Below, one piece after another: positions 10,999 through 48,710 of a DNA stretch of 64,000 nt (its first letter is position 1; each line of letters begins with the position of its first letter). A program made the translations under genes and the position numbers. The notes beneath the pieces were generated by a model, which worked only from the letters and a program-made list of their open reading frames with translations, made no database searches and was not told the DNA's origin. This stretch comes from Dehalococcoidia bacterium. Lineage in GTDB: Bacteria > Chloroflexota > Dehalococcoidia > Bin125. The stretch spans positions 32,460 to 96,459 of the forward strand of contig JAJDYG010000009.1 in the NCBI GenBank assembly GCA_022822855.1, in the 5' to 3' direction.

Positions 10999-11024
10999 AA
11001 GTTCGCCAGGTAACCGAGCAGACC

Positions 11025-17453: not shown

Positions 17454-20132
17454 GTGCAGGATTTCTCCATGACCAACGACGAACATCTCCTTGACGGCGT
17501 GCGCGTGATCGAAGTCGGGGACGAGGTCTCCGCTTACGCCGGCAAGCTGTTTGCTGGCCTCGGCGCAGAAGTGATCAAGGTTGAGCCCCCCGATGGATGC
17601 TCTACTCGGAGCATCGGACCGTTTTACCAGGATGACCCAGGTCTCGAGCGGTCGCTGTTCTGGTGGCACTACAGCATCGGCAAACGATCGTTGACGCTCA
17701 ATCTGAACGCCGATGATGGTCGCTCGACGTTGCTGAACCTGCTTGGCACGGCTGACCTGTTCCTCGACGCTCGACCGAAGTCCGACCTTGAGCAACAGGG
17801 ACCCGACGAGGAGGCCGTCCGCGAGGCGAACCCGGACATCGTGATTGCCCGGATGTCTCCGTTTGGCGATTCGGGGCCGTGGGCTGACTATCGGGGTTCG
17901 GATCTGGTCCACCTGGCGCTGGGTGGGCCGATGATGAACTGCGGCTATGACCCTCGGCCCGACGGCACGTACGACACTCCCCCTATCGCGCCGCAGATGT
18001 GGCAGGCGTACCACATCGCCGGGGAGCTGACCGTGATGAATGCGATTGGGGCGCTGATTGATCGGGGGCGTTCCGGCCGAGCGCAGACATTGCACACCGC
18101 GGTGCATGACGCGGTTGCCAAGAACACCGAGCTTGATCTGATGAGTTGGGTCTATCGGCGGGCGCGGTTCTTCCGGCAGACCTGCCGCCATGCGGCTGAG
18201 GTGGTCTCGCCGTTGCCGATGATTGGTCCGACCAAGGATGGGCGCTGGGTAATGGCGCTGCCGCGCGGACGGTCTCAGTCGTTGATCGACTTCCTGGACA
18301 GCTACGACATGGCGGCCGATTTGAAGGACAAAGCGCCGGAGTCGGGCGGCGCGAACACGCGCTCCAGAGGCGAGACCGCCGCCCACCTGCAGGAGGTGTC
18401 GCAGCGGTTGATCCGCAAGTTCCGGTTCGAAGACGTGCCCTGGCGCGAAGCGCAGGACCTGGGTCACCTCTGGGCGCCGTTGCGCAAACCGCATGAGAAC
18501 GCGCTCGATCCTCACTGGTGGGAGCGGGGGAGCTTCGCCAGGGTGGCGCATCCAGAACACGAGGTTGATGGCAAACCGGCAGAGTTCATCTACACGTCGA
18601 GCAAGTGGGTTTCGTCGGAGACGTCGTGGCAGGTCGGGCCGCGCGCCCCGCTGCTCGGAGAGCACAACGAGGAGATCCTCGGCGAGCTGGACGCCGGCTC
18701 CTTGCGTGTGGGGCAGGCTTCTGGCATCTCTCTCCGCGGAGCGGGCGGAGAACAGAACGGGAATGGCCGAGCCGATATCCCGGAAGGGGAGTGCTCGGTG
18801 TCCAGGTGGGGGACGCCGTTTCCGCTCGAGGGGGTTCGCATTCTCGACTTCACCTGGTGGCTCGCCTCGGGCGGCGCGCCGCGATTCCTGTCGGCGCTGG
18901 GCGCGGAGGACATCAAGGTCGAGTGGCATCAGAACATGGACCTGCGGGTCGGCATGGCTCAGTTTCCGCAAGGCGGCAAGGGAGCTCGTGAAGTCCTGGG
19001 GATCAACGATGGACCGTTGCCGCCCGACAACTCGACGATCAACCGCTCAGGGCAGTTCAACGACTTCCACGCAGGACATCGCGGACTCTCACTCAATCTG
19101 CGCGACCCCCGCGGGCTGGAGATTGCCAAGCAACTGGTGTCAATTTCGGACATCGTCGCCGAGGGCTTTTCGCCCGGCGTGATGGAGCGCTGGGGCCTGG
19201 GCTATGAGGTGATGAAGGAGATCAAGCCGGACATCATCTACCTGTCGCAATCGGGGATGGGCCAGGTCGGCGTCTACGGGCGATACCGCACCGTCGGTCC
19301 GATCGCCGCGTCCTTCGGCGCGATCTCCGAGTTATCGGGCCTGCCGGAGCCATATGCTCCGGCCGGTTGGGGGTACAGCTACCTCGACTGGTTCGGCGCG
19401 TACAACCTCGCCAACGCGATGATGGCGGCACTGTACTACCGCGACCGGACCGGCAAGGGTCAGTGGATCGACTCCTCACAGGTTGACGCGGGCATCTATC
19501 TGAACGGCACGTCGGTCCTCGAGTGGTCGGCCAACGGGACGATCTGGCAGCGCTACGGCAACCGCTCGCCGTACAAGCCGGCCGCCCCGCATGGCGCGTT
19601 CCGATGCCGCGACGACATCGAGTCCAGCGACCGCTGGGTCGCGTTCGGCTGCTTCGACGAGTCGGACTGGCAGTCGCTGCGGCGGGTGATGGGCGACGCG
19701 GAGTGGGCGGCATCGGACCGCTTCGCCACGTTGGCGGATCGGCTGGCTAACCAGGACGAATTGGACGAGCGGATTTCGGAGTGGACGCGTCAACATGACC
19801 GCTGGGACTTGATGACGAGACTGCAGGAGGCCGGAGTCGCCGCCGGCGTTTGCCAGGACGCCCAGGACCGGTTCGAGGGCGACCCGCAGCTCGCCCACCT
19901 CAACTGGCTGACCGAGGTCGAACATTCCGAGATGGGTCCCTGGCCGACCAAGGAGGTGCCGGTCAAGTGGAGCGAGACTCCGCCGTTCATGGGCGGGCCG
20001 ATCGACCGGGGCGCGCCGCGTTACGGCGAGGACAACCACTATGTGCTCGGCGAGCTGCTCGGCCTGAGCTCGTCGGAGATCTCCCGGCTGGCGGATGACG
20101 GGGTGATCGCCGAGGGTCTCGCGAAGGTCTGA
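17454..20132 (+). CDS. Family III CoA-transferase (CaiB/BaiF-like), tandem-duplicated fused protein
   Basis: Two CoA-transferase III-like halves. The N-terminal half has VRVIEVGDEVSAYAGKLFAGLGAEVIKVEPP. The second half (from ~aa 460) has VRILDFTWWLASGGAPRFLSALGAEDIKVEW. Confidence 0.8.
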   Translation: MQDFSMTNDEHLLDGVRVIEVGDEVSAYAGKLFAGLGAEVIKVEPPDGCSTRSIGPFYQDDPGLERSLFWWHYSIGKRSLTLNLNADDGRSTLLNLLGTADLFLDARPKSDLEQQGPDEEAVREANPDIVIARMSPFGDSGPWADYRGSDLVHLALGGPMMNCGYDPRPDGTYDTPPIAPQMWQAYHIAGELTVMNAIGALIDRGRSGRAQTLHTAVHDAVAKNTELDLMSWVYRRARFFRQTCRHAAEVVSPLPMIGPTKDGRWVMALPRGRSQSLIDFLDSYDMAADLKDKAPESGGANTRSRGETAAHLQEVSQRLIRKFRFEDVPWREAQDLGHLWAPLRKPHENALDPHWWERGSFARVAHPEHEVDGKPAEFIYTSSKWVSSETSWQVGPRAPLLGEHNEEILGELDAGSLRVGQASGISLRGAGGEQNGNGRADIPEGECSVSRWGTPFPLEGVRILDFTWWLASGGAPRFLSALGAEDIKVEWHQNMDLRVGMAQFPQGGKGAREVLGINDGPLPPDNSTINRSGQFNDFHAGHRGLSLNLRDPRGLEIAKQLVSISDIVAEGFSPGVMERWGLGYEVMKEIKPDIIYLSQSGMGQVGVYGRYRTVGPIAASFGAISELSGLPEPYAPAGWGYSYLDWFGAYNLANAMMAALYYRDRTGKGQWIDSSQVDAGIYLNGTSVLEWSANGTIWQRYGNRSPYKPAAPHGAFRCRDDIESSDRWVAFGCFDESDWQSLRRVMGDAEWAASDRFATLADRLANQDELDERISEWTRQHDRWDLMTRLQEAGVAAGVCQDAQDRFEGDPQLAHLNWLTEVEHSEMGPWPTKEVPVKWSETPPFMGGPIDRGAPRYGEDNHYVLGELLGLSSSEISRLADDGVIAEGLAKV

Positions 20133-20749: not shown

Positions 20750-21910
20750 TTAGAGGGACGCGTAGAGGGCGTCGATGAGGACGGTGCAGCGGGGGTCGTG
20801 GGCGACTTCGGTGCCCATCTGGTTCATGACGTAGCCGAAGCCGATGTTGGCGTCGAGGTCGGCGTAGCCGAGGGAGCCTCCGGCGCCAGAGTGGCCGAAG
20901 GCTCGGGGATTGGGGCCGTAGGGCGTGGATTCTCCGGTGAGGGCCCAGCCGAGTGCGAAGCGGGTGTTGATGCCGATGCAGGCGTCGGGGCCGTTGGTCT
21001 GTTCCTCGATGCCGTTCTCGATGGTTTCCGGACTGAGGACATGGACGCCGTCGATCTGGCCGCCGTTGGCGGCGGCGCCGTAGATGCGGGCCAGGGCGCG
21101 GGCGGTCGCGTGTCCGTTGGCGGCGGGGATCTCGGCGGCCCGCCAGTCGCGTCGCGACGCCATCGCCGGCCCGCCGGGGTTGAAGACCGGCGGATTGACG
21201 ACGGCGACGATGCCAACGCTGTCGGGGTCGCCGAACAGGTCGCTGGTGGGCGGGAACTCGGCGGCGATCTGGGGTTCGATCACGGTCGAGATGCGGGCGT
21301 CGAATTCAGGACCGGTGCCGATGTGGGCGTCGAGGCCTAGGGGCGCGGCGAACTCCTCGCGGAAGTACGTACCCAGCGAGCGGCCGTCGATCCGGCGGAC
21401 CACCTCGCCGACCAGCCAGCCGAAGGTCATGGCGTGGTAGCCGTGCTTCTCGCCGGGTGTCCACCAGGGCTCCTGCTCGGCGAGGGCCGAGGTCATGGTT
21501 TCCCAGTTGAACATGTCCTCGGCGACGAGCTCGCGCTTGACGGCGGCCATGCCTGCCTTGTGGCAGAGCAGCCAGCGGACCGGGATGTCCTGTTTGCCGG
21601 CGGCGGCAAACTCGGGCCAGTACTCGGCGACTGGGGCGTCGATATCGAGCCTGCCCTGTTCGACCAGCCGGTGAGCGCAGAACGCTGTGAGCCCCTTGGT
21701 CGAGGAGTAGACGTTGACGAGCGTGTTGCGATCCCATTCGCGCTCACGGTCGGGCGCGTACCAGCCGCCCCAGAGGTCGACGACGGGCTCTCCGTTGAGG
21801 TAGATGGCGACGGCTGCGCCGACTTCGTTGCGCTCGTCGAAGTTGCTCTCGAACGCTCGTCTGACGGCGTCGAAGCGCGGGTCGTTCCATCCGTGGATTG
21901 GAGTGGTCAT
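20750..21910 (-). CDS. Serine hydrolase, beta-lactamase/esterase (class C-like) family
   Basis: S-x-x-K motif (YSSTKGL). Start placed at MTTPIHGW by alignment with paralog 22084-23244. The upstream part of the ORF-track frame is encoded by the hairpin repeats. Confidence 0.8.
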   Translation of the reverse strand: MTTPIHGWNDPRFDAVRRAFESNFDERNEVGAAVAIYLNGEPVVDLWGGWYAPDREREWDRNTLVNVYSSTKGLTAFCAHRLVEQGRLDIDAPVAEYWPEFAAAGKQDIPVRWLLCHKAGMAAVKRELVAEDMFNWETMTSALAEQEPWWTPGEKHGYHAMTFGWLVGEVVRRIDGRSLGTYFREEFAAPLGLDAHIGTGPEFDARISTVIEPQIAAEFPPTSDLFGDPDSVGIVAVVNPPVFNPGGPAMASRRDWRAAEIPAANGHATARALARIYGAAANGGQIDGVHVLSPETIENGIEEQTNGPDACIGINTRFALGWALTGESTPYGPNPRAFGHSGAGGSLGYADLDANIGFGYVMNQMGTEVAHDPRCTVLIDALYASL

Positions 21911-21930
21911 GGTTGGTCCTTGTGGCTGGG

Positions 21931-22075
21931 AGCCCCCCTCTGCCTTCGGCATCTCCCCCCAGAGGGGGGAGAGAAGGATGGGAGTCAGCATCTCCCCAGA
22001 AGGGGAGAGAGTGAGAGAGGAAGCGGCGTCTCCTTCAGATGGGGAGAGTGGGTAGGAGTCGGCAGCTCCCTATGC
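21931..22075. repeat. Three tandem GC-rich palindromic hairpin units (CTCCCC..GGGGAG type)
   Basis: Units gcatctccccccagagggggagag, gcatctccccagaaggggagagag and gcgtctccttcagatggggagag lie between two co-directional paralogous genes. Confidence 0.75.
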
Positions 22076-22083
22076 GCTAGAAG

Positions 22084-23244
22084 CTAGAGCGAGGCGTAGA
22101 CGGCGTCGATGAGGCCGTTGACTCGAGGGTCTCCACTGAGGTTGTTCTGCATCTGGTTCATGGTGTAGCCGAAGCCGATGTTGGCGTCGATGTCTCCGTA
22201 GCCGAGGGATCCGCCGGCGCCGGGATGGCCGAAGGCTCGGGGGTTGGGTCCGAGGGGCATGAACTCGCCGGTGAGCATGAATCCGAGGCCGAAGCGGGTG
22301 GGGATCATCAGGCAGGTGTCGGGACCCTTGGACTGTTCGGCGATGGCGTTCTCGAGGGTGTCGGGGTTGATCACGTGGATGCCGTCGATCTCGCCTCCGT
22401 TGGCCGCGCCTCCGTAGAGGCGGGCCAGCGAGCGCGCTGTGGCGTGTCCGTTGGCTGCGGGGATTTCCGCGCCGCGCCAGCCTCGGCTGCCGGTGATGTT
22501 GTCTTCGTCGGGTCCGGCGATGGGTGGGTTGGAGAATGCTGCCGCGCCGACGCTGTCCTCGCCCATCATTTCAACGAGGTTGGGGGCATCGGGATCGACC
22601 GGCGCGTTGATCAGGGTCGAGATGCGGCCGTCGAACTCGGGTCCGGTGCCGATGTGCGCGTCCAGTCCGAGGGGCGCGGCGAACTCATCCCACCAGTAGC
22701 GGCCGATGGAGCGTCCGTCGATGCGGCGGACGACCTCGCCGACGAGCCAGCCGTAGGTCAGGGCGTGGTAGCCGTGCTGTTCACCCGGCGTCCACCAGGG
22801 CTCCTGCTCGGCCAGTGCCTCGCACATGGTGTCCCAGTTGTAGAGGTCTTCCATGACCAACGGTCGGCGGACGGCGGCCATGCCGGCGCGGTGCGACATC
22901 AACCAGCGGACGGGCATGTCGCCCTTGCCAGCCTGGGCGAACTCGGGCCAGTATTCGGAGACCGGCGCATCGAAGTCGAGCCGGCCTTCCTCGGCGAGCC
23001 GGTGGGCGCAGAAGGCGGCCAGGCCCTTGGTCGTGGAGAAGACGTTGACGAGCGTGTTGCGGTCCCACTCGCGCTCATGGTCGGCGTCGTACCAGCCGCC
23101 CCAGAGGTCGACGACGGGCTCGCCGTTGAGGTAGACGGAGACCGCTGCGCCGACTTCTCCGTGCTCGGCAAAGTTTGTCGCGAAGGCTTCGCGGACCGCG
23201 TCGAATCGTGGCTCGGTCCATCCGCCGATTGGCGCGTCGGTCAT
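22084..23244 (-). CDS. Serine hydrolase, beta-lactamase/esterase family (paralog)
   Basis: FSTTKGL S-x-x-K motif. Collinear with 20750-21910. Confidence 0.8.
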   Translation of the reverse strand: MTDAPIGGWTEPRFDAVREAFATNFAEHGEVGAAVSVYLNGEPVVDLWGGWYDADHEREWDRNTLVNVFSTTKGLAAFCAHRLAEEGRLDFDAPVSEYWPEFAQAGKGDMPVRWLMSHRAGMAAVRRPLVMEDLYNWDTMCEALAEQEPWWTPGEQHGYHALTYGWLVGEVVRRIDGRSIGRYWWDEFAAPLGLDAHIGTGPEFDGRISTLINAPVDPDAPNLVEMMGEDSVGAAAFSNPPIAGPDEDNITGSRGWRGAEIPAANGHATARSLARLYGGAANGGEIDGIHVINPDTLENAIAEQSKGPDTCLMIPTRFGLGFMLTGEFMPLGPNPRAFGHPGAGGSLGYGDIDANIGFGYTMNQMQNNLSGDPRVNGLIDAVYASL

Positions 23245-29926: not shown

Positions 29927-30670
29927 TTGGCCATGGTTCGCAAACGGATGCTCGAGGACGACGCCCGGCGGTTGCTGGGCGGATCGCCGGTGGCGATCGT
30001 CAGCACGAACTGGCGAGGCGTCGGCAATGCGGCGCCGATTGCCTGGTCGATGCCGGTCTCGGTCAATCCGCCCCTGGTCGCGATCGCAGTGCATCCTTCG
30101 CGGCGCACCCACGACATGATCAAGTTTGGGGAAGAGTTCGCGATCAATATCCCATCGAAGGTGCTGCTCAATCACACGCAGTGGCTGGGTATGGTATCGA
30201 ACACGATCGGCGACAAATTAGAAGCATCCCGTGTGCCCTCGTTCAAAGGCAAGGAGATTGATTCACCCTTGCTCGAGGGTTGCATCGGTTGGATTGAATG
30301 TACGCTTCATGACTTCTACACAGTGGGCGATCATACGTTATTCATCGGCAAAGTTGTGTCGGCTCAGGCCGATACGGACGGTTTCGATTTCAACACCGGT
30401 ATGTGGTCGCTGGACGACGATGAGTACAAGCCGCTGATGTACCTGGGCGGCCGCAGCTACAGCATCCTCGACGATCTCTTCGACGCGACGGTCGAGCAAC
30501 GCCCGGTCGAACAGATGCTTGAGGAGGGTATCGGGCGGGAGCTGGAGGAGGCTGAGGCTGAGCGCCGCATCAAGCGCGAGGAAGAAGCCGAGCGTCGTGA
30601 GGAAGAAGAGCGTCGCGGGGAGGCCGAGCCCGATACGTCAAGCCTGCCGCGAGAGCTACCCGATGCGTAG
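29927..30670 (+). CDS. Flavin reductase-like domain protein with Glu/Arg-rich C-terminal tail
   Basis: Flavin reductase-like core (LLGGSPVAIVSTNWRGVGNAAPIAWSMPVS). C-terminal EAEAERRIKREEEAERREEEERRGEAE charged segment. Confidence 0.7.
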   Translation: MAMVRKRMLEDDARRLLGGSPVAIVSTNWRGVGNAAPIAWSMPVSVNPPLVAIAVHPSRRTHDMIKFGEEFAINIPSKVLLNHTQWLGMVSNTIGDKLEASRVPSFKGKEIDSPLLEGCIGWIECTLHDFYTVGDHTLFIGKVVSAQADTDGFDFNTGMWSLDDDEYKPLMYLGGRSYSILDDLFDATVEQRPVEQMLEEGIGRELEEAEAERRIKREEEAERREEEERRGEAEPDTSSLPRELPDA

Positions 30671-32882
30671 TCGCCATGTGCGCCATGTCCCTGTCGAGCT
30701 GGCTGCCGCTGCGTTCATCGTGGTTGCTCTCGTCCTCGTCGCGCTGTCAGGGACTCCAGGTAGCGACCCAACGTCGGCCCAGGACCAAGATGAAGCGGTC
30801 ACGGCGCGGGTCGTGGCCCGAGATGCGACGGGCAACCGAATTGAGTTCGGGATCCGCACTGGGGAAAGGACATACCTTCCCGACGAGCGCTTCATGTCTC
30901 GAAACAGGAGGAGCGTGCGCTGGGCGCAGAGTTCTGAGGTCGTCATCGCGGACGGGCGGGCGCTACATGTGACTGCGCGGCGACTCACGAGCGGCAGCTT
31001 CGAGTTTGGGATTCGCGTCGACGGTGTGACAGAGCGGCTCCTGCCCCAGTCACGTTTCGTATCGGCCGACCGGGACCTCGACGAGTGGCTCGACAGCAGC
31101 CCCGTCACACTGCCACATCCGGAGATACTGCGGACCGTCACGCCTGTCTCGCCGGAATTGCTCGGGCTTGGGAGCAGTCATAGCTGTGCCGTGACGGGCG
31201 ATGGAAGCATCGAGTGCTGGGGTTCCCACGAGTACGGTCAGAATGACCCGCCAGACGGGCAGTTCCTGACGATCAGCGCCGATGCAGTCCAGAGTTGCGC
31301 TTTGAATGTCGGCGGCGGCATCGTCTGCTGGGGCGACAACAGCCTGGGTCAACTCGATGCGCCGGTGGGACGCTATGTTGCGCTCGGCATAGGCGGTGTT
31401 CATGGCTGCGCACTGGATGAGGACGGGGCCATCGATTGCTGGGGACTCGACTTCAATGGGCAGGCAACATCGCCGGAGGGCAGGTTTGTCGCCCTGAGCT
31501 CGGGCACCGGCCACAACTGCGCCATCACCACATCCGGCGAAGTGGAATGCTGGGGCGACAATCTGTGGGGTCAGTCTGACGCTCCCGAGGGGCGCTTCGT
31601 TGCTGTTGACGCGGGAGGCGCCCATAGCTGCGCTCAGGATGCAGCAGGCGCGATTCAATGCTGGGGCTACGGTGGCGATGGTCAGTTGGGCATTCCACCC
31701 GGCCGATACACCAGTTTCGTCGCCGGAGCCTGGCATACCTGTGCCATTGACGGCGACGGTCATCTCGGCTGTTGGGGTTGGGACGGTCACAACCAGAGCA
31801 GTCCGCCGCCGGGATCCTACGCTGCAGTTGGCGCAGGCGGTGCACACACCTGCGGCGTTGCGACCGACGGCAGCGTCCGCTGTTGGGGCTCAAACGGCGC
31901 CGGTCAGACCGAGTCGCCGAGTGGAGAGTTCAGCGAGGTTGTGGCAGGTTTCTTACACACCTGTGCTCTCGACGAGGAGGGCGCCGCCTCATGTTGGGGC
32001 ACAAACGGAGATGGTCAATCGGACGCACCGGAAGGGTCGTTCATCTCAATCGGTCCCGGCCTGTCACATACCTGCGCGGTCGACCAGGACAATGAGTTGG
32101 TCTGTTGGGGCTGGGATGGCTACGGCCAGACCGATGCGCCTGTCAGCGAGCTACCCGAGGATGAATCGCGGTTGGTTCCGTTCAGACTCGGGGACAGCGA
32201 CTGCGAACAGGACGAGTTCGGCGCCTTCAGCAGAGATACCTGTTGGGGCAGCGACGAGGATTCTCCGCTCAGTCCACCGAGGGTAAGTCACTACCAGACG
32301 GTCGGCAGCGGAGGTTCATTCTCTTGCGCCCTCACGCTCAACAACGAGATCGACTGCTGGGGCACCGGGCGAAGCGGGCAACTGGAGTCGCCTTCTGGCC
32401 AGTGGCGGAGGCTGAGCGTCGGCTTTGCGCATGCCTGCGCACTGGACGAAGCTGGCGAGATCACCTGCTGGGGGGCGAACTCATACGGACAGTCTGATGC
32501 GCCGGAAGGGCCATTCGTGTCCATCTCGGCGGGAATCGTGCATACCTGCGCACTTGATGCCGCAGGTCAGGTCACCTGCTGGGGCGACGACGAATACGGA
32601 CAACTCGAGATCACGCCAGGGTCCTACGAAGTCGTGTCGTGCGGCGGGGAACACACTTGCGCGATGACCGCCTCGGGCGAGATCTCCTGCTGGGGACGCG
32701 ACGTCTGGGGTCAGGCGAGCCCGCCTGAAGGCGTGTACACCGCGCTGTCGGTGGGCGCCGAGCACAGTTGCGCCCTGAACGAGGAGGGCGAGATCGTCTG
32801 CTGGGGCATCAACAGGTACGGGAACACCGACGTCCCGGAAGCGCTCCAGCAGCCCGGCGCCGTCTCGGTTGCGAGCGAATAG
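30663..32882 (+). CDS. Membrane-anchored RCC1-repeat (beta-propeller) protein with N-terminal novel tandem repeat module
   Basis: N-terminal TM (AAAFIVVALVLVAL), then two ~55-aa repeats (ARxxxGxxEFGIR...LP..RF). About 15 RCC1-like blades follow, each with H-x-C-A ... C-W-G-x-(N/D)-x-x-G-Q. Start at the ATG overlapping the upstream stop. Confidence 0.8.
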   Translation: MRSRHVRHVPVELAAAAFIVVALVLVALSGTPGSDPTSAQDQDEAVTARVVARDATGNRIEFGIRTGERTYLPDERFMSRNRRSVRWAQSSEVVIADGRALHVTARRLTSGSFEFGIRVDGVTERLLPQSRFVSADRDLDEWLDSSPVTLPHPEILRTVTPVSPELLGLGSSHSCAVTGDGSIECWGSHEYGQNDPPDGQFLTISADAVQSCALNVGGGIVCWGDNSLGQLDAPVGRYVALGIGGVHGCALDEDGAIDCWGLDFNGQATSPEGRFVALSSGTGHNCAITTSGEVECWGDNLWGQSDAPEGRFVAVDAGGAHSCAQDAAGAIQCWGYGGDGQLGIPPGRYTSFVAGAWHTCAIDGDGHLGCWGWDGHNQSSPPPGSYAAVGAGGAHTCGVATDGSVRCWGSNGAGQTESPSGEFSEVVAGFLHTCALDEEGAASCWGTNGDGQSDAPEGSFISIGPGLSHTCAVDQDNELVCWGWDGYGQTDAPVSELPEDESRLVPFRLGDSDCEQDEFGAFSRDTCWGSDEDSPLSPPRVSHYQTVGSGGSFSCALTLNNEIDCWGTGRSGQLESPSGQWRRLSVGFAHACALDEAGEITCWGANSYGQSDAPEGPFVSISAGIVHTCALDAAGQVTCWGDDEYGQLEITPGSYEVVSCGGEHTCAMTASGEISCWGRDVWGQASPPEGVYTALSVGAEHSCALNEEGEIVCWGINRYGNTDVPEALQQPGAVSVASE

Positions 32883-33726
32883 AGCTTTGACTCAGGAGAT
32901 CGTGCGCAGGATCGTTGAGGGCGACAACCTGCCAATCCTGCAGGGGTTGCCCAATGAGAGCGTGCAGCTCGCATACACCGATCCGCCGTTCAACACCGGC
33001 AATGTGCGGACGTATCAGCGATTTCGGACAACCCAAGATGAACAGGGCGACCGTACCGGATTCGGTGGTCGCCGATACCGCTCTGAGGAGACATCGTCGC
33101 ACTCGTACTCCGATGCGTTCGAGGAGTACATCGGCTTTCTCGCTCCCAGGCTCGCCGAGATCTGGCGGGTCTTGCGCTTGGATGGAACCCTGTATCTGCA
33201 CCTCGACGCACGCGAGGTCCACTATGTGAAAGTCTTGCTCGACAGCATCTTCGGTCGCGACTGCTTTCTCAATGAAATCGTCTGGGCTTATGACTTTGGC
33301 GGCCGGCCCAAACGGCGTTGGCCGGCCAAACATGACAACATCCTGGTCTACGTCAAGGATCGGGAGCAGTACGTGTTCAACCGAGACGAGATCGATCGCA
33401 TTCCCTATCTGGCGCCGGGCTTGGTTGGGAAGGAGAAGGCAGCGCGAGGGAAACTGCCGACGGATGTCTGGTGGCACACGATCGTCGGGACCAGCGCCAA
33501 GGAACGGACCGGATATCCGACGCAGAAGCCCGTTGCACTGGCGGAGCGGATCATTCGGGCGTCCAGCGATGCGGGGGAATTGGTGCTCGATCCGTTCGCC
33601 GGCAGCGGGACCGTCGGCGCGGCCTCAGCGCATCTCGGTCGCCGATACCTATTGGTCGACAGCAATCCCGAGGCTGTCGCGGTGATGTCGGAGCGATTGC
33701 CCGACGCCGAGGTGGTCAGACCGTGA
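32869..33726 (+). CDS. DNA methyltransferase (N6-adenine/N4-cytosine, beta-class), apparently orphan
   Basis: Motif IV TDPPFNTG precedes motif I PFAGSGT near the C-terminus. The start overlaps the RCC1 gene end. No restriction enzyme gene is adjacent. Confidence 0.8.
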   Translation: MRANRALTQEIVRRIVEGDNLPILQGLPNESVQLAYTDPPFNTGNVRTYQRFRTTQDEQGDRTGFGGRRYRSEETSSHSYSDAFEEYIGFLAPRLAEIWRVLRLDGTLYLHLDAREVHYVKVLLDSIFGRDCFLNEIVWAYDFGGRPKRRWPAKHDNILVYVKDREQYVFNRDEIDRIPYLAPGLVGKEKAARGKLPTDVWWHTIVGTSAKERTGYPTQKPVALAERIIRASSDAGELVLDPFAGSGTVGAASAHLGRRYLLVDSNPEAVAVMSERLPDAEVVRP

Positions 33727-40597: not shown

Positions 40598-42613
40598 TTA
40601 GGCCGAGTACTCCGGATGCGTCGTGTCAAGCCAGGTGTCGTCGTAGCGATGCGAGGCATGGGCGAACTGGTAGACGTCCTCGGAGTTGTGCACGTAGGGC
40701 CACTCGACCTGCGGCGAAATGGCGTTCATCACGGACGGCTGACCGGTCATCCCCTCAACCCCATGGTCGGGATGGACACCGAGGAAGATCTTGAGCAGTT
40801 CGGAGGCTGTCTCCTTGCGTTTGTCGACATCGAGTTCGGTCCGCATGCCCCTGATCATCTCCTCCGCAGGCGGGTAGTTGTACTGCGAGAAGTTGGAGCT
40901 GCCACCGGCGACGTGAGTGATGTTCCACTCACCGGTCGGGTCAAGGTCTTGCGGCGGGTTGGTCCAGGCTGGCGTTTGGCCGGGGTGGGTGCCCTCCAGC
41001 AGACGCTGAAGAATGACGGTGTACGGCTGGATGTCCATCGACAGCGTGACCCCCAAGGCCTGCTCGTACATCGAGCGCACCGTCTCCGTGATGCCCGGAT
41101 AGGTCTGTTCCCAGACGTCCGGCGTGATCCAGTAGAAGGTCCGGCTGTCGCGATCGACGCCCGCGGCATCCAGCAGTTCATTCGCCATCTGGATGTCGGC
41201 ATCGCGATTCGGCCGGTATCCGGGCCACGTGGCGAGTTCTTCGGGCGGGACCGTCCAGGCCTGGTTGAACCACGGTGCCTGAGCGATCGCGCTGATCTTG
41301 GCCGAGCCCAGGTAGACGGCATCGATCAACAGGTAGCGGTCGGTGGCCACGTGGAAGGCATAGGCCAAACGACGGTCCGCCCACGGATTGCCCAGTCCAT
41401 CCTCACCCGGCCAGTCCGGGTTGAAGTTGTAGCGGATCTGAATCGTGAAACCGAAGGGAACGTCGAAGACGTTGTGTTCGGGGAAGTCGCTCAGAATGCC
41501 CTCAACCTGCAGGCTCGAAAGCGGGAATCCGCCAATGTCGATCCCCTTGCCGCGATACGCGGCGTCGACAGCAGTCGCGTCGACGAGGTTCGTGAACTCG
41601 ACCCGATCCAGATATGGCAGCGCGCCGCCGTCTGCCCCGTTCTTCCAGTAGTTCGGGTTGACATCGAGATTGATGCCAAGGTCCGGGTCGTAGTTGAGCG
41701 GCATGTACGCTCCCGTGCCGGAAGAGAGCTCGACGTTCGTCTGCTCGTCACGCCAGCGGTTACCGAACTCGGTGATCGCCTCGGGTGAGGTGATCCAGGA
41801 GAACGGGCTCAGGTGCGCGCCCAGATAGGTCGAGTCAGGCTCGGCGGTCGTGTAGGTAATCGTCGTGTCATCGACGACTTCGAGCTTGTCCGTCTGCTGG
41901 TATTTGCTCGCGGTCAGGAATGACGTGTCCTCAACGCCGTCCGCGTCAACGGAATCGATCTGCCGCTGAGAGTTGAATCGAATATCCTCCGCCGTGACCA
42001 GCCGTCCACCCTCCGTCGGGTAGCGGTCCCAGAACCGCGCGCCCTGGTCGACGCTGAAGATGTAGGTGGTGTCGTCGGGAATCTCTGGCAGCGACGCAAT
42101 GTCGCTCTCCATGATTCCCTTTTCCTTGTTTCGCCAGCGGATGAGGTAGTTCATGTAGAACCCCATCCAGAACTGGGTCGGACCGAACACCGCGCGGTGC
42201 GGATCGAAGTAATCGTGGGTGGCCGCCGGAGTCGAGAAGCGAAGCGTGCCGCCTCTTGTCAGGCCTGAGGTGTCGGCGACGGCCTGCTGTTGCGCCTGAT
42301 CCGCTTGGTCCTGTTGAGTCTGCTCTTGCTGATCAGCCTGCGAGGCCGACTGGTCGGCCTGTTGCTCCTGGTCCTGCTGCATGGCCTGTTGCTGTTGTTG
42401 CTGCATGGCCTGCTGTTGCGCGGCTTGCTGTTGCGCTTGCTGCTGTTGTTGCGCAGCGGTGACGGCCTGCTGGCCGTCGTCGTCATCGTCGCCGCAACCG
42501 ACCAACGCGAGGCCAGCCGCGCCGACACCGGCGCGCGACGAGGCTCGCAGGAGCGAACGCCTGCTCATTCGCTTACGCGCCATTCGCTGCCAGTAGTTCT
42601 GTCGCTCGGTCAT
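40598..42613 (-). CDS. ABC transporter substrate-binding protein, family 5 (paralog 4)
   Basis: Same Tat/lipobox N-terminus (NYWQRMARKRMSRRSLLRASSRAGVGAAGLALVGCGDDDDD), Q-rich linker and paralogous blocks. It stands alone with no adjacent permeases. Confidence 0.85.
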   Translation of the reverse strand: MTERQNYWQRMARKRMSRRSLLRASSRAGVGAAGLALVGCGDDDDDGQQAVTAAQQQQQAQQQAAQQQAMQQQQQQAMQQDQEQQADQSASQADQQEQTQQDQADQAQQQAVADTSGLTRGGTLRFSTPAATHDYFDPHRAVFGPTQFWMGFYMNYLIRWRNKEKGIMESDIASLPEIPDDTTYIFSVDQGARFWDRYPTEGGRLVTAEDIRFNSQRQIDSVDADGVEDTSFLTASKYQQTDKLEVVDDTTITYTTAEPDSTYLGAHLSPFSWITSPEAITEFGNRWRDEQTNVELSSGTGAYMPLNYDPDLGINLDVNPNYWKNGADGGALPYLDRVEFTNLVDATAVDAAYRGKGIDIGGFPLSSLQVEGILSDFPEHNVFDVPFGFTIQIRYNFNPDWPGEDGLGNPWADRRLAYAFHVATDRYLLIDAVYLGSAKISAIAQAPWFNQAWTVPPEELATWPGYRPNRDADIQMANELLDAAGVDRDSRTFYWITPDVWEQTYPGITETVRSMYEQALGVTLSMDIQPYTVILQRLLEGTHPGQTPAWTNPPQDLDPTGEWNITHVAGGSSNFSQYNYPPAEEMIRGMRTELDVDKRKETASELLKIFLGVHPDHGVEGMTGQPSVMNAISPQVEWPYVHNSEDVYQFAHASHRYDDTWLDTTHPEYSA

Positions 42614-43504: not shown

Positions 43505-43789
43505 GTGTCTCGCGAGTTTACCGACGCGCTGCAGGACGAGATGGCTCCGATGATGACGAAGGAGGAGATCCAGATGATGATCTCCGGCCTGGTCGATCAA
43601 ATCGAGGCTCGCATGTGGCGCGTGGTGGCATTTGCCACAGGGATTCTGATTGGCGTGATCGCGATTGCCACGACACTCATCCTGACACTCAATCGATTAC
43701 AGCGTCGCGAGCACGCCGCCCAGACCGATCAGCGCGCCGACCAGCAGATGCAACTGCGCCGTCCGTTTCAGCATCGGGTTGAGCGCTGA
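43505..43789 (+). CDS. Hypothetical small membrane protein
   Basis: One predicted TM segment (VVAFATGILIGVIAIATTLILTL). Its 3' end overlaps MenA on the opposite strand. Confidence 0.25.
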   Translation: MSREFTDALQDEMAPMMTKEEIQMMISGLVDQIEARMWRVVAFATGILIGVIAIATTLILTLNRLQRREHAAQTDQRADQQMQLRRPFQHRVER

Positions 43790-44608
43790 TCCTTCCCGAC
43801 CAGTCACGATCTCGCGGGCGAGCCACATGGCCGGCGGCAATCCTATCCAGGCGATGTAACAGTAGTAGGGGATCAACCCGACCGATGCGAAGACGGCGAT
43901 GCCGACGAACGCGCCAATCGTCAGAACGACGTATTCGATCCTGGTGTTTCGTTCCCCGATCGTGACCGCGAGGGTCCGTTTGTGGCTCGCGCGATCCGTG
44001 TGAATGTCGCGCAGATTGTTGACTACCAGGATCGCCGTGACCAGGCAACCCACGGGCACAGAAGCAGCGGCCAGCTCCCACGTCAGCTCCTCAATCTGGA
44101 CGTAACCCGCGCCCATCACGGCGACGAAGCCGAAGAAGAGGAAGCAGATCACGTCGCCCAGGCCTCGGTAGCCGTACGGCAGCGGTCCGCCTGTGTAAGT
44201 GACGGCCGCGATCAGGGAAAGCGCGCCAATTGGCAGGATCGGCCAGCCCACGATGATGATCAGCACGATCCCGACGATCAGGGCAGCCGCGGTCGCCAGC
44301 GCGATACCGACAGTCATCTCTCGTTGCGACAACCAACCCTGGGCGACGGCGCGCGGCGGTCCGAGGCGGTCCGGCGTATCAGCGCCGCGGCGGAAATCGG
44401 AGAGGTCGTTGGCGAAGTTGACGACGATCTGGATGAAGATCGCGCCGATCAGGGCGAGGAAGAAGCGGCCGGCCTCGAAGTCGCCGTCAACGGCCGCAAT
44501 GCCTGTGCCGGCGAGCACCGGCGATACCGCCGCTGGGAGGGTCGGCGGGCGGACCGCGAGGAGCCAGGCTCGGCGTTTGGGTGGGGCGGGAGGCGCCGCG
44601 GCCGACAT
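43697..44608 (-). CDS. menA: 1,4-dihydroxy-2-naphthoate polyprenyltransferase (UbiA family)
   Basis: UbiA-family Asp-rich motif NDLSDFRRGAD, a multi-TM protein. Adjacent to menB, which it overlaps. Confidence 0.8.
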   Translation of the reverse strand: MSAAAPPAPPKRRAWLLAVRPPTLPAAVSPVLAGTGIAAVDGDFEAGRFFLALIGAIFIQIVVNFANDLSDFRRGADTPDRLGPPRAVAQGWLSQREMTVGIALATAAALIVGIVLIIIVGWPILPIGALSLIAAVTYTGGPLPYGYRGLGDVICFLFFGFVAVMGAGYVQIEELTWELAAASVPVGCLVTAILVVNNLRDIHTDRASHKRTLAVTIGERNTRIEYVVLTIGAFVGIAVFASVGLIPYYCYIAWIGLPPAMWLAREIVTGREGSALNPMLKRTAQLHLLVGALIGLGGVLATL

Positions 44609-45459
44609 CAGGGGAATCGCGGGTACTTCGAGAAGTCGGGCTTGCGCTTCTCGAGGAACGCCGTCTTGCCCTCCTTGGCTTCCTCAGAGAGGTAATACAG
44701 CAGGGTCGAGTCGCCAGCGAACATCTGCATTCCGGACAGCCCGTCGGTGTCGGCCACGAGGGCTCGCTTGATGAAACGCAGCGCGGTCGGCGACATGCAC
44801 AGAATCTCGCGACAGCGGTTGACGACTTCCAGCTCAAGCTCGTCGACTGGGAACACCTCGCAGGCGAGCCCCATCTCGACGGCCTCGGCCCCGCTGTACT
44901 GGCGGCACTGCATCCAGATCTCGGCGGCCTTCTTGTGACCCACCAGCCGCGCCAGCAGCATCGTGCCGTATCCGGCGTCGAACGATCCAACCTTCGGTCC
45001 GGTCTGGCCGAACCAGGCGTTGTCGGCCGCGTAGGTCAGGTCGCAGACCGTGGCCAGGACATTCCCGCCGCCGATCGCGTAGCCCGAGACCATCGCAATC
45101 ACCGGCTTGGGAATCGATCGCATGTAGCGGTGCAGATCAAGCACATTGAGTCGCGGCACGCCGTCGTCGCCCACATAGCCACCGTCGCCGCGGATCCGCT
45201 GGTCGCCGCCCGAGCAGAACGCCTCCTTGCCCTCGCCGGTCAGAATGATCACACCGACCGACATGTCCTCGTGTGCGCGTTTGAAGGCGTCCAGCAGCTC
45301 GAACAGGGTCTTGGGACGGAAGGCGTTGCGCACCTCGGGCCGGGCGATCGTGATCTTGGCGATGCCCTCGGCGACGTCGTAGTAGATGTCGCCGTAATCG
45401 CCCGACCGCTCCCAATCCGGGAGACCGGTGCGTTCGACGGTGACGGTTGGACGGGACAT
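44608..45459 (-). CDS. menB: 1,4-dihydroxy-2-naphthoyl-CoA synthase (crotonase family)
   Basis: Crotonase-fold signature plus MenB-specific C-terminal pattern ([13 protein letters not shown]..., [13 protein letters not shown]). Confidence 0.85.
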
Positions 45460-45465
45460 AACTCG

Positions 45466-46119
45466 TTACTCCTTCGATGGGTGTGAATTCGAATTGGATT
45501 GGAGCGGAACGCCGGCGCTGCGCAACAGCAATCGCCGAAGTTCGGGATAGATGCGGTCAATCGGCATCGCGACGCGGCCGGCGGCCCAGGCCGACAGAGT
45601 CGACTGAACCATGCCGACCCAGGCGCGCGCCGTGAGGTCGGGATCGAGCGGCGCGTCGAGCTGACTCAGACGGCCGCCGTCGAGCGCGCTTCGGAGCTCC
45701 AGCGAGATCAGGGCGACGAACTCGTCCTCGATCTCGGCCACCCGCTCGCGCGCCGCCGCCGATCCGCCCAGCGTCTCGCTGGCCAGGACGCGGGCCAGCG
45801 AGCGGTGCGCGGAAAGCGTCTCAATCAGCGTCGCCAGCGCGGCGTCAGCTCGCGCCACCGGGTCGGAGCCGGCGGCGCTCATCGCATTATCGACCCGCCG
45901 TCGGAGAACATCCCCTGCGCGTCCGATCACCGCCGCGATCAGCGCCTCCTTGGTCGGGAAGTGAAAGTACAGCCCGCCCTTGGACGTGTCGGCAGCGGCC
46001 GCGATCTCGTCCATCTGCGCGTCGGAGTATCCCCGACGGGCGAAGACGCGAGCAGCAGCGTCGAGCAGCAACTCGCGCCGCTCGACCGCGCGGGCCTGAC
46101 GTGGCTGTGTCGTGGTCAT
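45466..46119 (-). CDS. TetR/AcrR family transcriptional regulator
   Basis: N-terminal HTH (AAARVFARRGYSDAQMDEIAAAADTSKGGLYFHFPTKEAL). Start set at the internal Met MTTTQ. Confidence 0.75.
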   Translation of the reverse strand: MTTTQPRQARAVERRELLLDAAARVFARRGYSDAQMDEIAAAADTSKGGLYFHFPTKEALIAAVIGRAGDVLRRRVDNAMSAAGSDPVARADAALATLIETLSAHRSLARVLASETLGGSAAARERVAEIEDEFVALISLELRSALDGGRLSQLDAPLDPDLTARAWVGMVQSTLSAWAAGRVAMPIDRIYPELRRLLLRSAGVPLQSNSNSHPSKE

Positions 46120-46177: not shown

Positions 46178-46879
46178 ATGGATCGTCGGACCGCCGCTCA
46201 ACAGCGCACACGCACCATCGAGGAGATGTTCAGCCGTCTGGTCCCCCACTACGACCGCATGAACCGCCTGATGACCGGCGGTCGAGATGGTCGCTGGCGG
46301 ACCCTGGCCGTAGAGACGTCGCAGCCGCAAGATGCAGTCGTGCTCGATCTTGGCGCGGGCACCGGCGACCTCAGCGCAGAGTTCCGTCGCCAGGGCGCTG
46401 GTCACGTACTCGGCTTCGATGTCTCGGCCTCGATGCTCGCGCGGGCCGACGAGAAGTTCGGGCGCGACGGCATCGACTGGCTGCAGGGCGACGCGCTGCA
46501 CCTGCCCTTCCCCCACGAGTCGTTCGATGTGGTCGCCTCCGCCTTCGTCATGCGCAACCTGCCCGACCTGGCCGGCTCCTTCGAGGAGATGGCCCGAGTC
46601 CTCAAGCCGGGCGGCCGCCTGGTCGGCCTCGACATCACACACCCGCCGGACACGCCCTGGGGCCGAGTGCTGCGCGTCGGCTTCGAACAGGGCGTCACCA
46701 GGGTGGCGGGTCTGCTCTCAGGCGACCGCTCCGCCTATCGCTATCTGCCCAACTCGCTCAGCGGCTACCCGACCGCGGACGAGTTGTCGCGAATGCTTGA
46801 GTCAGCTGGCCTGGTCGATGTGTCATACCGCCGCCTGTCAATGGGCGCGGTCGCGCTGCACCTGGGTCGGAAGAGCTAG
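46178..46879 (+). CDS. ubiE: Demethylmenaquinone methyltransferase / ubiquinone-menaquinone C-methyltransferase
   Basis: EMFSRLVPHYDRMNRLMTGG signature of UbiE/MenG and an LDLGAGTGD SAM motif. Sits in the men cluster. Confidence 0.8.
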   Translation: MDRRTAAQQRTRTIEEMFSRLVPHYDRMNRLMTGGRDGRWRTLAVETSQPQDAVVLDLGAGTGDLSAEFRRQGAGHVLGFDVSASMLARADEKFGRDGIDWLQGDALHLPFPHESFDVVASAFVMRNLPDLAGSFEEMARVLKPGGRLVGLDITHPPDTPWGRVLRVGFEQGVTRVAGLLSGDRSAYRYLPNSLSGYPTADELSRMLESAGLVDVSYRRLSMGAVALHLGRKS

Positions 46880-47502
46880 CGCTGAGCGTCCAACGCGACC
46901 ATCGCCCGTCCGCTGCCCTTGACCAGCCGACCGCCCCAGGTCGTCGGCGGGGCTTGATCGACGCTCAGCCACTCGGAGCGGGTGATGCGAAAGCCGGCCG
47001 CCTCCAGTGGATCACGTAGCGACTTCCGAACCTTCTCAGGTGTCGGCCGATCGAACCCCTCGGGCACTGCCTCGGCGTTGAGCACGATGCTGAGTCTGGC
47101 TCTCGGCGCGGCCAAGTCGTTGAGGATGTCGCCGATCAGCGCGTCGCCGCCGAGGATCAACCTCAGCAACGCAGCCCAGGGGAAGTAGATCGTGATCCAG
47201 TCGCCTGTGCCTTGCAGCTCGGCCGGGAGCGATTCGACGCTCGCCGCGACGTACAGTGCGTTGGGCGCGCCGCCGCGAGCCGGTTTGCGGTCGGCGAGCT
47301 TCGCGGCTTCGCCGAGTGCATCCCGGTCAGGATCAACCCCAATGGCGAGAACGTTGCTGTACTCCCGGGCGAAGCGCCGCGGCCAGGCTCCGTCACCCGT
47401 GCCCAGATCGACCAGAGTCGACGCGTATCCCGTACGCAGTTCGTAGAACTCGCTCTGGTCCATGTTGCGTGGACCGCGACGGCTGATGATTTCCAGTGAC
47501 AT
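46876..47502 (-). CDS. Class I SAM-dependent methyltransferase; possible 16S rRNA (adenine1408-N1) methyltransferase (KamB/NpmA-like)
   Basis: The GTGDG motif I, KPARGGAPNALY and FPWAALLRLILG segments recall aminoglycoside-resistance 16S m1A1408 MTases. This rests on motif similarity recalled from memory. Confidence 0.45.
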   Translation of the reverse strand: MSLEIISRRGPRNMDQSEFYELRTGYASTLVDLGTGDGAWPRRFAREYSNVLAIGVDPDRDALGEAAKLADRKPARGGAPNALYVAASVESLPAELQGTGDWITIYFPWAALLRLILGGDALIGDILNDLAAPRARLSIVLNAEAVPEGFDRPTPEKVRKSLRDPLEAAGFRITRSEWLSVDQAPPTTWGGRLVKGSGRAMVALDAQR

Positions 47503-47603
47503 CTCAGAGCCCAGAGTAGACTTGCGGCGGTACGTCCTCAGTCGCACCGCGACAGTTCCCCCTGTTGAGAGGGGGGCTGCAGTTGCTGGAAAGGAACTCT
47601 CCA

Positions 47604-48710
47604 ATGCCGACTCCCGCGCGCGTGATTTTTCTCCCCGAAGCCGACGAGCCGCTGGCTATCGAACGCGTCGACCTCCCCGACCCAACAGACTTCCAGGTCG
47701 TGGTGCGACAGTTCGCGTCGGGCATTTGCCACTCGCAGTTGCACCAGATGCACAACCCGCGCAACGGCGACCAGATCCTGGGGCACGAAGCGACAGGCGA
47801 AGTGATCAAGATCGGCTCTCAGGTCACGAACGTTCAGGTCGGCGACATCGTCTTCGTCACCTGGGTGCCGCGTAGCCCCGACACGGCGAAGCGCGAAGTC
47901 GACGCAATCGTGGTTGAGCGGCCCAACGGCCGCACCGCGACCACCCGCAACGTGTTCACCTGGGCCGACACGACGATCGCAGACGAGAAGTACATTGTCA
48001 AGGTCCCGCAGGACACACGTCGCGATGTGACCTCGATCATCGGCTGCGCCGTGCTCACCGGCTCGGGCGCGGTCTACAACACCGCCGCGGTGCGCGAGGG
48101 CGACAGCGTCGTGATCTTCGGTGTCGGCGGCGTGGGGCTATCCGCCGTCGTAGCCGCCTCGGTCGTCAAGGCGGACCCGATCATCGCGGTGGATCTGGAC
48201 GACGAAAAACTGGAGTTCGCCAAGCGGTTCGGCGCGACCCACGGCGTGAACGCCTCTGGCGGCGATGCCATCGAACAGATTCACGCGCTGACCCAGGGCG
48301 ACGGCATGACCAGCTTTGGCGAGCCCATCTCGGGTGCCGACTTCGCCTTCGACTGCATCGGTCGCGAGGTGACGATGGGCCAGATTTTGCGGGCCGTACG
48401 TCCCGGCATCCTGGGCGCCGAGACCGGTGGCACGGCAGTGTTGGTCGGCGTCCCGCAGTCGGGCGTGACCTTCAGCGAGGTCGATATGCGCGGCATGTTG
48501 ATCAACGAAAAGAAGTACATCGGCTCTATCGGCGGCAGCTGTCATCCCGACCGAGACTTCCCGATGTTCCTCGCCTGGGCCGAGGACGGCGCCCTCGACC
48601 TCGACGCGATGGTCACCGAACGCTTCAAGATCGGTCAGATCAACGAGGCAACCGCCGCGCTCGAGCAGGGCGAAATCTTCGGTCGCGCAATCATGGAGTT
48701 TGACGACTAG
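47604..48710 (+). CDS. Zinc-dependent alcohol dehydrogenase (MDR family)
   Basis: GICHSQLH and GHEATGEV motifs, and a GVGGVG Rossmann segment. Confidence 0.8.
   Translation: MPTPARVIFLPEADEPLAIERVDLPDPTDFQVVVRQFASGICHSQLHQMHNPRNGDQILGHEATGEVIKIGSQVTNVQVGDIVFVTWVPRSPDTAKREVDAIVVERPNGRTATTRNVFTWADTTIADEKYIVKVPQDTRRDVTSIIGCAVLTGSGAVYNTAAVREGDSVVIFGVGGVGLSAVVAASVVKADPIIAVDLDDEKLEFAKRFGATHGVNASGGDAIEQIHALTQGDGMTSFGEPISGADFAFDCIGREVTMGQILRAVRPGILGAETGGTAVLVGVPQSGVTFSEVDMRGMLINEKKYIGSIGGSCHPDRDFPMFLAWAEDGALDLDAMVTERFKIGQINEATAALEQGEIFGRAIMEFDD

Follow-up and report, generated by a model that had tools for sequence, protein, structure and literature searches.

A probable Kam/NpmA-family 16S rRNA (adenine1408-N1) methyltransferase in long-term synteny with menaquinone genes in Dehalococcoidia

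Why should a gene resembling the aminoglycoside-resistance methyltransferases of antibiotic producers and pathogens lie beside the menaquinone genes of an uncultured Dehalococcoidia bacterium? This question is raised by a stretch of 64,000 nucleotides of contig JAJDYG010000009.1 (assembly GCA_022822855.1), referred to here as the window, for which a preliminary description had suggested a KamB/NpmA-type methyltransferase acting on N1 of adenine 1408 (m1A1408) of 16S ribosomal RNA (rRNA). The coding sequence, called here the Kam gene, occupies positions 46876..47502 on the minus strand and encodes 208 amino acids (aa) followed by a TAG stop codon (46878-46876); its delimitation is based on the listing of open reading frames (ORFs), the Pfam match to PF24675, the N-termini of orthologs and an AlphaFold2 model. 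Family membership and fold, the conservation of functional residues, synteny and purifying selection are shown below; from them we infer the target nucleotide, the activity and the phenotype: the product is probably an S-adenosylmethionine (SAM)-dependent class I methyltransferase of the Kam/NpmA family (EC 2.1.1.180) that modifies A1408 and renders its host intrinsically resistant, encoded by a chromosomal, vertically inherited and monocistronic gene.

In Pfam, the 208-aa protein scored 165 bits (E 1.9e-48) with PF24675 (NpmA, 16S rRNA adenine1408-N1 methyltransferase), whose gathering score is 60, and the match was full-length, placing residues 12-206 on positions 9-212 of the 214 in the profile, while the generic methyltransferase domains all stayed under their cutoffs. 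Among NCBIfam/AMRFinder models the four top ones were KamB, WarA, NpmB and NpmA, yet each remained far from its cutoff (115.7 bits vs 350, 91.2 vs 305, 75 vs 460 and 65.8 vs 470, respectively), so that no named allele could be assigned. As the family profile is passed but the allele or equivalog cutoffs (305-470) are far from reached, the gene is, judged by its sequence, a genuine but uncharacterised member of the Kam/NpmA family and none of the named alleles. A phmmer search of PDB sequences recovered all seven solved m1A1408 methyltransferases with E-values from 7e-30 to 2e-17, namely Kmr (4RWZ, 7e-30), KamB (3MQ2, 7e-23), CacKam (4X1O/5BW5, ~4e-22), NpmB1 (7EHF, 8e-22), NpmA (3MTE, 1e-18) and UncKam (7JLZ, 2e-17), and the next matches appeared only at E > 1e-3. 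Pairwise identity to the query was 38.6% for Kmr, 33.2% for CacKam, 32.1% for KamB and 28.6% for NpmA, the NpmA reference being identical to PDB 3P2E/3MTE. Existing labels vary, as close homologs are named 'class I SAM-dependent methyltransferase' by NCBI and some homologs carry the JGI label '16S rRNA (adenine(1408)-N(1))-methyltransferase'.

When 1.84 billion representatives were searched exhaustively with HMMER, 421 clusters passed E <= 1e-10. The clade of the query itself accounts for just two of these, P0093 and P0113, and the next best cluster scored 148 bits at 39% identity; on these similarity scores, the query clade is an isolated subfamily within a family of modest size. It was monophyletic in a neighbour-joining tree of 108 representatives and the reference enzymes, with P0121, P0122 and P0123 as its sisters and Kmr as the nearest characterised enzyme.

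The predicted fold places the protein in the same family. The AlphaFold2 model, built on 34 homologs, reached a mean predicted local distance difference test (pLDDT) of 90.3 and a predicted template modelling (TM) score of 0.88, and shows the family-typical N-terminal beta-hairpin (strands E3-7 and E10-14) ahead of the Rossmann core. Confidence was reduced only in the beta6/7 linker (residues ~181-200, with pLDDT 59-70), which is expected given the mobility or disorder of this linker in Kmr and CacKam. In a Foldseek comparison with the PDB, ranks 1-19 were all taken by m1A1408 methyltransferases (E 5e-21 to 1.5e-14, TM 0.76-0.87), and only after a clear gap did a second tier follow, consisting of TrmB and generic methyltransferases (E ~1e-8, TM <= 0.61). 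The KamB/NpmA-type identity proposed in the preliminary description is thus borne out by the Pfam score, by these 19 best structural matches and by the functional residues, most of which are kept; the outcome named beforehand as speaking against it, a generic small-molecule methyltransferase as best match, did not occur.

Residue equivalences were read from alignments with NpmA, KamB, Kmr and CacKam, and conservation was counted in 120 homologs; residue roles follow Witek and Conn 2016 (PMC4705659), and the effects of mutations in KamB are those tabulated by Macmaster et al. 2010 (PMC2995053). The residues found essential by mutagenesis of KamB and NpmA are mostly present in the query. Motif I, D32-L-G34-T-G36-D-G38 (47389..47409, minus strand), was conserved in 119/119 homologs; it comprises D32, equivalent to D30 of NpmA and KamB and a water-mediated SAM contact (119/119), and the GxGxG SAM loop, all three glycines of which (G34, G36 and G38) were likewise found in 119/119. 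Further contacts to SAM are represented by D57 (D55, ribose; 119/119), E90 (E88, adenine N6; 113/120) and T187 (NpmA S195, KamB T191, SAM carboxyl), the last being threonine in 113 and serine in 6 of the 120 homologs. As for the target nucleotide, the invariant F107-P108-W109 (47176..47184, minus strand; each residue 120/120) supplies W109, the equivalent of NpmA W107 and KamB W105 and the first of the tryptophans positioning A1408, and substitution of this residue in KamB (W105A/F) destroys resistance (PMC2995053). The second stacking tryptophan, W189 (NpmA W197, KamB W193; 120/120), lies within the beta6/7 linker T187-T-W189-G-G-R192-L-V-K-G-S-G-R199 (46906..46944, minus strand, delimited by the alignments), which also holds the linker arginine R192 (KamB R196, NpmA R200; 119/120) and R199 (NpmA R207, contact to the A1408 phosphate; 119/120). 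Both stacking tryptophans were kept in 106-107 of the 108 family representatives. Finally, the basic beta2/3 linker K68..R72-K73-P-A-R76-G-G78 (47269..47301, minus strand) aligns with NpmA K66, K70, K71 and K74, with R72 present in 119/120 homologs, R76 in 120/120 and position 73 occupied by lysine in 113 and arginine in 7; it is the predicted surface for docking on the 30S subunit, the role that this linker has in NpmA (PMC4705659).

By analogy with the NpmA-30S complex (PMC4705659), the enzyme would bind SAM through D32, G34xG36xG38, D57, E90 and T187, and dock on the assembled or mature 30S subunit via K68, R72, K73 and R76 of the beta2/3 linker. A1408 of helix 44 would then flip into a pocket formed by W109 and W189, with R192 and R199 of the beta6/7 linker holding the nucleotide and its backbone in place, and the methyl group of SAM would be moved to N1 of the adenine. 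The modification blocks drugs of the kanamycin, neomycin and apramycin type (PMC4705659): m1A1408 in the decoding site weakens the binding of such drugs, and the host would thus be intrinsically resistant. Most likely, then, the gene confers intrinsic m1A1408 modification.

The extent of the coding sequence required a decision on the start codon. The listed ORF (46876..47604, minus strand) begins with TTG and has 242 aa, and an internal ATG at 47502, the start implied by the coordinates of the preliminary description, gives the 208-aa protein MSLEIISRRG..., which contains all three motif blocks on which the preliminary description had relied: GTGDG (residues 34-38), KPARGGAPNALY (73-84) and FPWAALLRLILG (107-118). 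The TTG start at 47604 was rejected, as it would overlap head-to-head with the start codon (ATG, likewise at 47604) of the divergently oriented alcohol dehydrogenase gene, and orthologs begin at residue 3 of the query. The N-terminus MEIITRRG, aligned to that residue, is found in 74 of the 120 homologs, each 206 aa long, and the PF24675 match begins at profile position 9 and query residue 12. Because of the ortholog N-termini, the near-N-terminal profile match and the overlap of the two starts, ATG 47502 is the better predicted start.

The Kam gene is embedded in genes of primary metabolism. Downstream it converges with ubiE/menG (46178-46879, plus strand; Pfam), followed by tetR (45466-46119 or 46179, minus strand; Pfam), menB (44608-45459, minus strand; Pfam ECH_1) and menA (43697-44608, minus strand; Pfam UbiA), so that the menaquinone cluster previously noted beside the gene is indeed there. 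Upstream, a Zn-dependent alcohol dehydrogenase (ADH) gene (47604..48710, plus strand; Pfam ADH_N/ADH_zinc_N) diverges from it. With each GTDB species represented by one genome, a scan yielded 37 loci, most of them located via the Kam gene itself and all titled Dehalococcoidia or Chloroflexota metagenome-assembled genomes (MAGs), and every sufficiently long locus showed the same order: short-chain dehydrogenase/reductase (SDR), phosphodiesterase, Zn-ADH (divergent), Kam, ubiE/menG (convergent), tetR, menB and menA. A second, metagenome scan was seeded with the ADH and intended to find relatives without the Kam gene. Three further close loci were found independently in this way, and all three carried it beside the ADH, bringing the total to 40/40 close loci; the remaining 77 ADH-seeded loci held ADH homologs of at most 65% identity in unrelated contexts. 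Isolate names among the loci include SB0664/SB0665, RHO and IRC, which we take to be sponge-microbiome binning projects. The host lineage is made up of uncultured Dehalococcoidia/Chloroflexota, many of whose genomes are sponge-microbiome MAGs, and the Kam gene is likely lineage-wide in these abundant sponge symbionts. One of the loci, L029, comes from bin125, a symbiont found at high coverage in the sponge Aplysina aerophoba (PMC5649159).

The association reaches considerably deeper than these species. Within the 37 loci, identity to the window was 63-78% for the Kam orthologs and 75-99% for the neighbours, while across the sister lineages it fell to 70-73% for MenB, 50-53% for MenG, 41-45% for TetR and 38-43% for Kam, in genomes with a GC content of 0.46-0.70 that presumably belong to Chloroflexota as well. 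In P0121 no gene separates Kam from the convergent ubiE-tetR-menB, an arrangement matching that of the window; in P0122 a single luciferase-like gene lies between them, and in P0123 the space before the men genes holds a 2-oxoacid:ferredoxin oxidoreductase pair in addition to a luciferase-like gene. In all, synteny of Kam and men genes covers L001-L037, L038 and L118-L123. The sisters keep the catalytic residues, and the simplest reading is that the Kam gene has co-descended vertically with the men block over a long time.

Such a history bears on another conceivable origin, in which the gene either protects an aminoglycoside producer from its own product or was acquired recently as a mobile resistance gene. 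Classically, enzymes of the KamB type serve self-resistance in producers, those of the NpmA type are acquired, and some other family members adjoin phosphotransferase or transporter and regulator genes. However, Pfam annotation of the ~47 ORFs across the window revealed no aminoglycoside-biosynthesis gene, transposase or integrase and no genes for the 2-deoxystreptamine pathway, sugar aminotransferases or glycosyltransferases, and tblastn against PLSDB detected no plasmid relative. The GC content at third codon positions of the Kam gene is typical of the window, and its synonymous divergence (dS 1.15) is similar to that of its neighbours (0.64-1.18), to which the synteny in 37 species and in the deep sister lineages is added. 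Within the 64-kb window the gene is neither mobile nor a producer self-resistance determinant, and this origin, largely refuted there, seems to us highly improbable. The suggestion in the preliminary description that a non-producer would carry the gene as an intrinsic resistance or housekeeping homolog agrees with a chromosomal, syntenic gene inherited vertically in a Chloroflexota lineage.

Gene contexts elsewhere in the Kam family are mixed. In P0127 (39% identical; L124:72-3673, GCA_964631745.1), the Kam gene lies between an S4/rRNA pseudouridine-synthase gene with an MTS-family methyltransferase gene on one side and rsgA on the other, its 3' end overlapping the gene for RsgA, the 30S-maturation GTPase; a ribosome-biogenesis neighbourhood is unusual for a 'resistance' family. 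Resistance-like contexts were seen in P0133, whose vicinity includes a phosphotransferase of the APH family, DUF371 and a SpoU methylase (L126:2070-5684), and in P0278, located after a DUF371/TP_methylase gene and adjoining a major facilitator superfamily (MFS) transporter and TetR (L125:3715-8069), with DUF371 beside the Kam gene in both.

The deeply conserved position directly beside ubiE/menG and the other men genes could also be taken to mean that the protein is a generic small-molecule methyltransferase serving the menaquinone pathway. MenG/UbiE supplies the sole methylation step of menaquinone synthesis, the generic methyltransferase domains are below their cutoffs where PF24675 scores 165 bits, and the structural neighbours are rRNA methyltransferases. 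Moreover, Kam and menG are convergent, and hence not co-transcribed, so that their adjacency is better explained by long-term synteny than by a menaquinone function, and a role in that pathway is highly unlikely. Aminoglycoside uptake depends on respiration, and a functional link to menaquinone through respiration-dependent drug uptake was likewise considered; it was set aside, as the genes are convergent and long-term synteny fits better.

At this junction the stop codons of the Kam gene (minus strand) and ubiE/menG (plus strand) overlap in a CTAG palindrome (46876..46879) with no spacer, and because the genes are convergent with overlapping stops, the methyltransferase gene forms its own transcription unit. 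The junction itself is variable: the genes abut or overlap in the window and in about a dozen loci, and an insert of 1-4 kb separates them elsewhere (L005, L008, L009, L011, L015, L016, L018, L019, L025-L031, L035, L036 and L118). The ORFs of the 3.3-kb insert of L005 match no Pfam family, and neither does an 804-aa ORF in the insert of L118. In two loci a second, degraded copy of the last ~60 codons of the methyltransferase gene lies 0.7-1.3 kb downstream of the intact gene (L005:9878-10072, 68% identical with an in-frame stop; L019:9291-9476, 48% identical), and these fragments look like remnants of insertion, duplication or allele replacement at the junction.

On the opposite side, the divergent intergenic region between the Kam and Zn-ADH genes (47503..47603) measures 101 bp and presumably holds both promoters. 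Its folding was no better than that of shuffled sequences (z -1.26 and -0.55 on the two strands). A conserved block, AAGTCTACTCTG (47512-47523, minus strand), lies 10 nt before the ATG; in 35 aligned orthologous upstream regions it gave the consensus +A+TCTA++CTG, with the core TCTA..CTG kept in most loci. This block could be a -10-like element giving rise to a near-leaderless mRNA.

Several observations weigh against the assignment of A1408 methylation and intrinsic resistance to this gene. Kmr, although the nearest characterised enzyme, is only ~39% identical, and the exception among the residues essential by mutagenesis is the position of KamB R201 (NpmA R205), occupied by S197 in the query. 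The beta5/6 linker, formed by residues 143-154 between N142 and P155 (47041..47076, minus strand) and modelled as coil, has 12 residues, 7 fewer than usual, compared with 18-19 in NpmA, KamB, Kmr and CacKam. In regulatory respects, a scan of 46700-47750 found no sigma-70 consensus promoter ahead of the ATG and no terminator; a Shine-Dalgarno sequence is missing before the ATG in the window, whereas most orthologs have a GAGGA-like ribosome-binding site. The 16S rRNA of the organism, with its position 1408, lies outside the window. Furthermore, Kam is the fastest-evolving gene of the block, with a ratio of nonsynonymous to synonymous substitution rates (dN/dS, Nei-Gojobori) of ~0.19 over 37 orthologs against 0.02-0.13 for its neighbours (tetR 0.13; phosphodiesterase 0.10; menA and menG 0.08; ADH 0.055; SDR 0.035; menB 0.02). 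Since this value of 0.19 goes together with a neighbour-like dS, it points to purifying selection on the least constrained gene of the block, with no sign of a separate history.

The shortened linker bears on the choice of target. In NpmA the beta5/6 linker rearranges upon 30S binding and provides E146 and R153 (PMC4705659); E144 of the query aligns with E146 in one alignment and not in the other, and the R153 equivalent is non-basic (F150 in one alignment). Over the 108 representatives and four references, a 19-residue linker was counted in 79 of 105 other family representatives, and 12 residues were found in two of the three sister lineages; the short form would be a shared derived trait. 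One may therefore consider a Kam-fold methyltransferase whose target has moved to another nucleotide of rRNA or transfer RNA (tRNA) owing to the truncation, as the linker has 12 residues instead of the 18-19 of characterised enzymes and the family is structurally nearest to the tRNA m7G46 methyltransferase TrmB, according to both PMC2995053 and the second Foldseek tier. On the other hand, the stacking tryptophans, FPW, R192, R199 and the basic beta2/3 linker, which serve specifically in flipping A1408 and in docking on the 30S subunit, are near-invariant in the clade, TM scores are 0.76-0.87 to Kam enzymes and at most 0.61 to TrmB, and the beta5/6 linker is variable, dynamic and poorly conserved among active enzymes of the family (PMC4705659). 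A changed target thus appears unlikely, and methylation of A1408 stays the preferred reading.

A closer competitor accepts the same modification and differs in its meaning. m1A1408 could be a constitutive native ('housekeeping') modification that tunes decoding or ribosome function, with resistance as a by-product. Consistent with this, the locus is kept beside primary-metabolism genes across a deep divergence (Kam 38-43%, MenB 70-73%, GC 0.46-0.70), the Kam gene occurs in 40/40 close loci and is under purifying selection, and its surroundings include no resistance island, transporter or mobile context. The ribosome-biogenesis neighbourhood of P0127, with its pseudouridine synthase, MTS methyltransferase and RsgA, points in the same direction, and KamB is reported to raise translational accuracy in E. 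coli (PMC12406665). Against this stand the rank of Kam as the least constrained gene of the block, unusual for a core ribosome-biogenesis factor, and the degraded 3' fragments in L005 and L019, which suggest turnover at the locus. Presence in the wider lineage is, moreover, known mostly from loci found through the Kam gene itself, and all characterised family members are resistance determinants. We therefore regard a native role as possible but rather doubtful, and an intrinsic resistance methyltransferase as the better description of the gene.

What is new is a distinct Chloroflexota subfamily with a short beta5/6 linker and deep vertical linkage to the men block. Going further, it might tentatively be proposed that m1A1408 is an ancient constitutive modification of a deep Chloroflexota/Dehalococcoidia branch, introduced by a short-linker Kam subfamily co-descended with the men block, in which case the resistance enzymes of producers and pathogens would be offshoots of native ribosome-modification enzymes and abundant sponge symbionts would be intrinsically insensitive to all aminoglycosides. 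The question matters, as the resistance conferred by m1A1408 methyltransferases is of a very high level and extends to many clinical aminoglycosides. To our knowledge, few of them have been characterised (NpmA, NpmB, NpmC, the KamB-type enzymes, Kmr, CacKam and WarA). A separate conserved subfamily, ~29-39% identical to the known enzymes, widens both the environmental reservoir and the sequence diversity of the family, and its genes would escape standard annotation and allele-based resistance screens. It also offers a natural variant for probing the contribution of the beta5/6 linker to 30S recognition, and a concrete setting in which to ask if methylated A1408 can be a native ribosomal feature of a whole lineage rather than solely a defence against antibiotics.

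The remaining content of the window, according to Pfam, comprises parts of peptide ABC transporters, dehydrogenases, luciferase-like monooxygenases, glyoxalases, a DNA methylase, the men genes and ilvBNC. At gathering threshold, Rfam reported no RNA family anywhere in the 64 kb (no rRNA, tRNA-like element, riboswitch or known leader). Four paralogous family-5 solute-binding proteins of 670 aa (SBP_bac_5) are encoded together with ABC permeases at 63-12257 and 40598-42613, and in the permease at 4325-5950 a LysM domain is fused to the N-terminus, which is unusual. An 892-aa protein (17454-20132, plus strand) has two stretches matching CoA-transferase family III (445 bits) and is apparently a fused double-domain form. 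Two tandem genes encode PF00144 'Beta-lactamase' serine hydrolases of 413 and 386 aa (20750-23244, minus strand; ~245 bits each). At 30519-33726 (plus strand), a gene for a 787-aa RCC1-repeat/RCC1-like protein precedes an overlapping gene for an N6/N4 DNA methylase (PF01555). Eukaryote-like repeat proteins of the RCC1 type are a hallmark of sponge symbionts.

Among the known systems, Kmr of Sorangium cellulosum So ce56 (4RWZ/4RX1) is the nearest characterised enzyme by sequence search (phmmer 7e-30, ~39% identity) and by neighbour-joining distance, with a Foldseek TM of ~0.8. It shares with the query the arginine of ...SGR (R199) and T-x-W in the beta6/7 linker, and it is likewise found on the chromosome of an organism that does not produce aminoglycosides. 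However, its beta5/6 linker has 19 residues instead of 12, the residues corresponding to E90 and R192 of the query (positions E88 and R200) are Q and H, and it comes from an unrelated host phylum and an unrelated gene context. KamB of Streptoalloteichus tenebrarius (3MQ2; TM 0.86) agrees with the query in D30, D55, T191, W105, W193 and R196 (D32, D57, T187, W109, W189 and R192), but is only 32% identical and differs at R201, replaced by S197, the query having the NpmA-type R199 instead; furthermore, KamB is a self-resistance gene of a producer, whereas the query gene adjoins no biosynthetic cluster. The mechanistic template is NpmA of E. coli ARS3 (3MTE, 3P2E and the 30S complex 4OX9), in which W107/W197 and R207 correspond to W109/W189 and R199, and the docking surface K66/K67/K70/K71 has its counterparts in K68/R72/K73/R76. 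Identity to NpmA is 29%, R153 is not kept and the beta5/6 linker of the query is shorter; in addition, NpmA is acquired and mobile (PMC12271512).

The top Foldseek match was CacKam of Catenulispora acidiphila (5BW4, E 5e-21, TM 0.87), which, like UncKam from an uncultured bacterium (7JLZ), is a member of uncharacterised origin shown or assumed to methylate A1408. Unlike the compact 208-aa query, CacKam has an extended beta6/7 linker sequestering W203 and a C-terminal extension (267-aa construct). Our literature search found no report of Kam-family enzymes in Chloroflexi or sponge symbionts, and only Chloroflexi homologs of the m7G1405 family were mentioned. The best conceptual analogue is WarA of Nocardia wallacei, a chromosomal, species-intrinsic m1A1408 methyltransferase in a non-producer, to which PMC13493296, with reference to Hershko et al. 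2024, attributes high-level intrinsic resistance to aminoglycosides. There, WarA is described for one Nocardia species, whereas the gene presented here is syntenic in at least 37 species and in deeper sister lineages of Chloroflexota.

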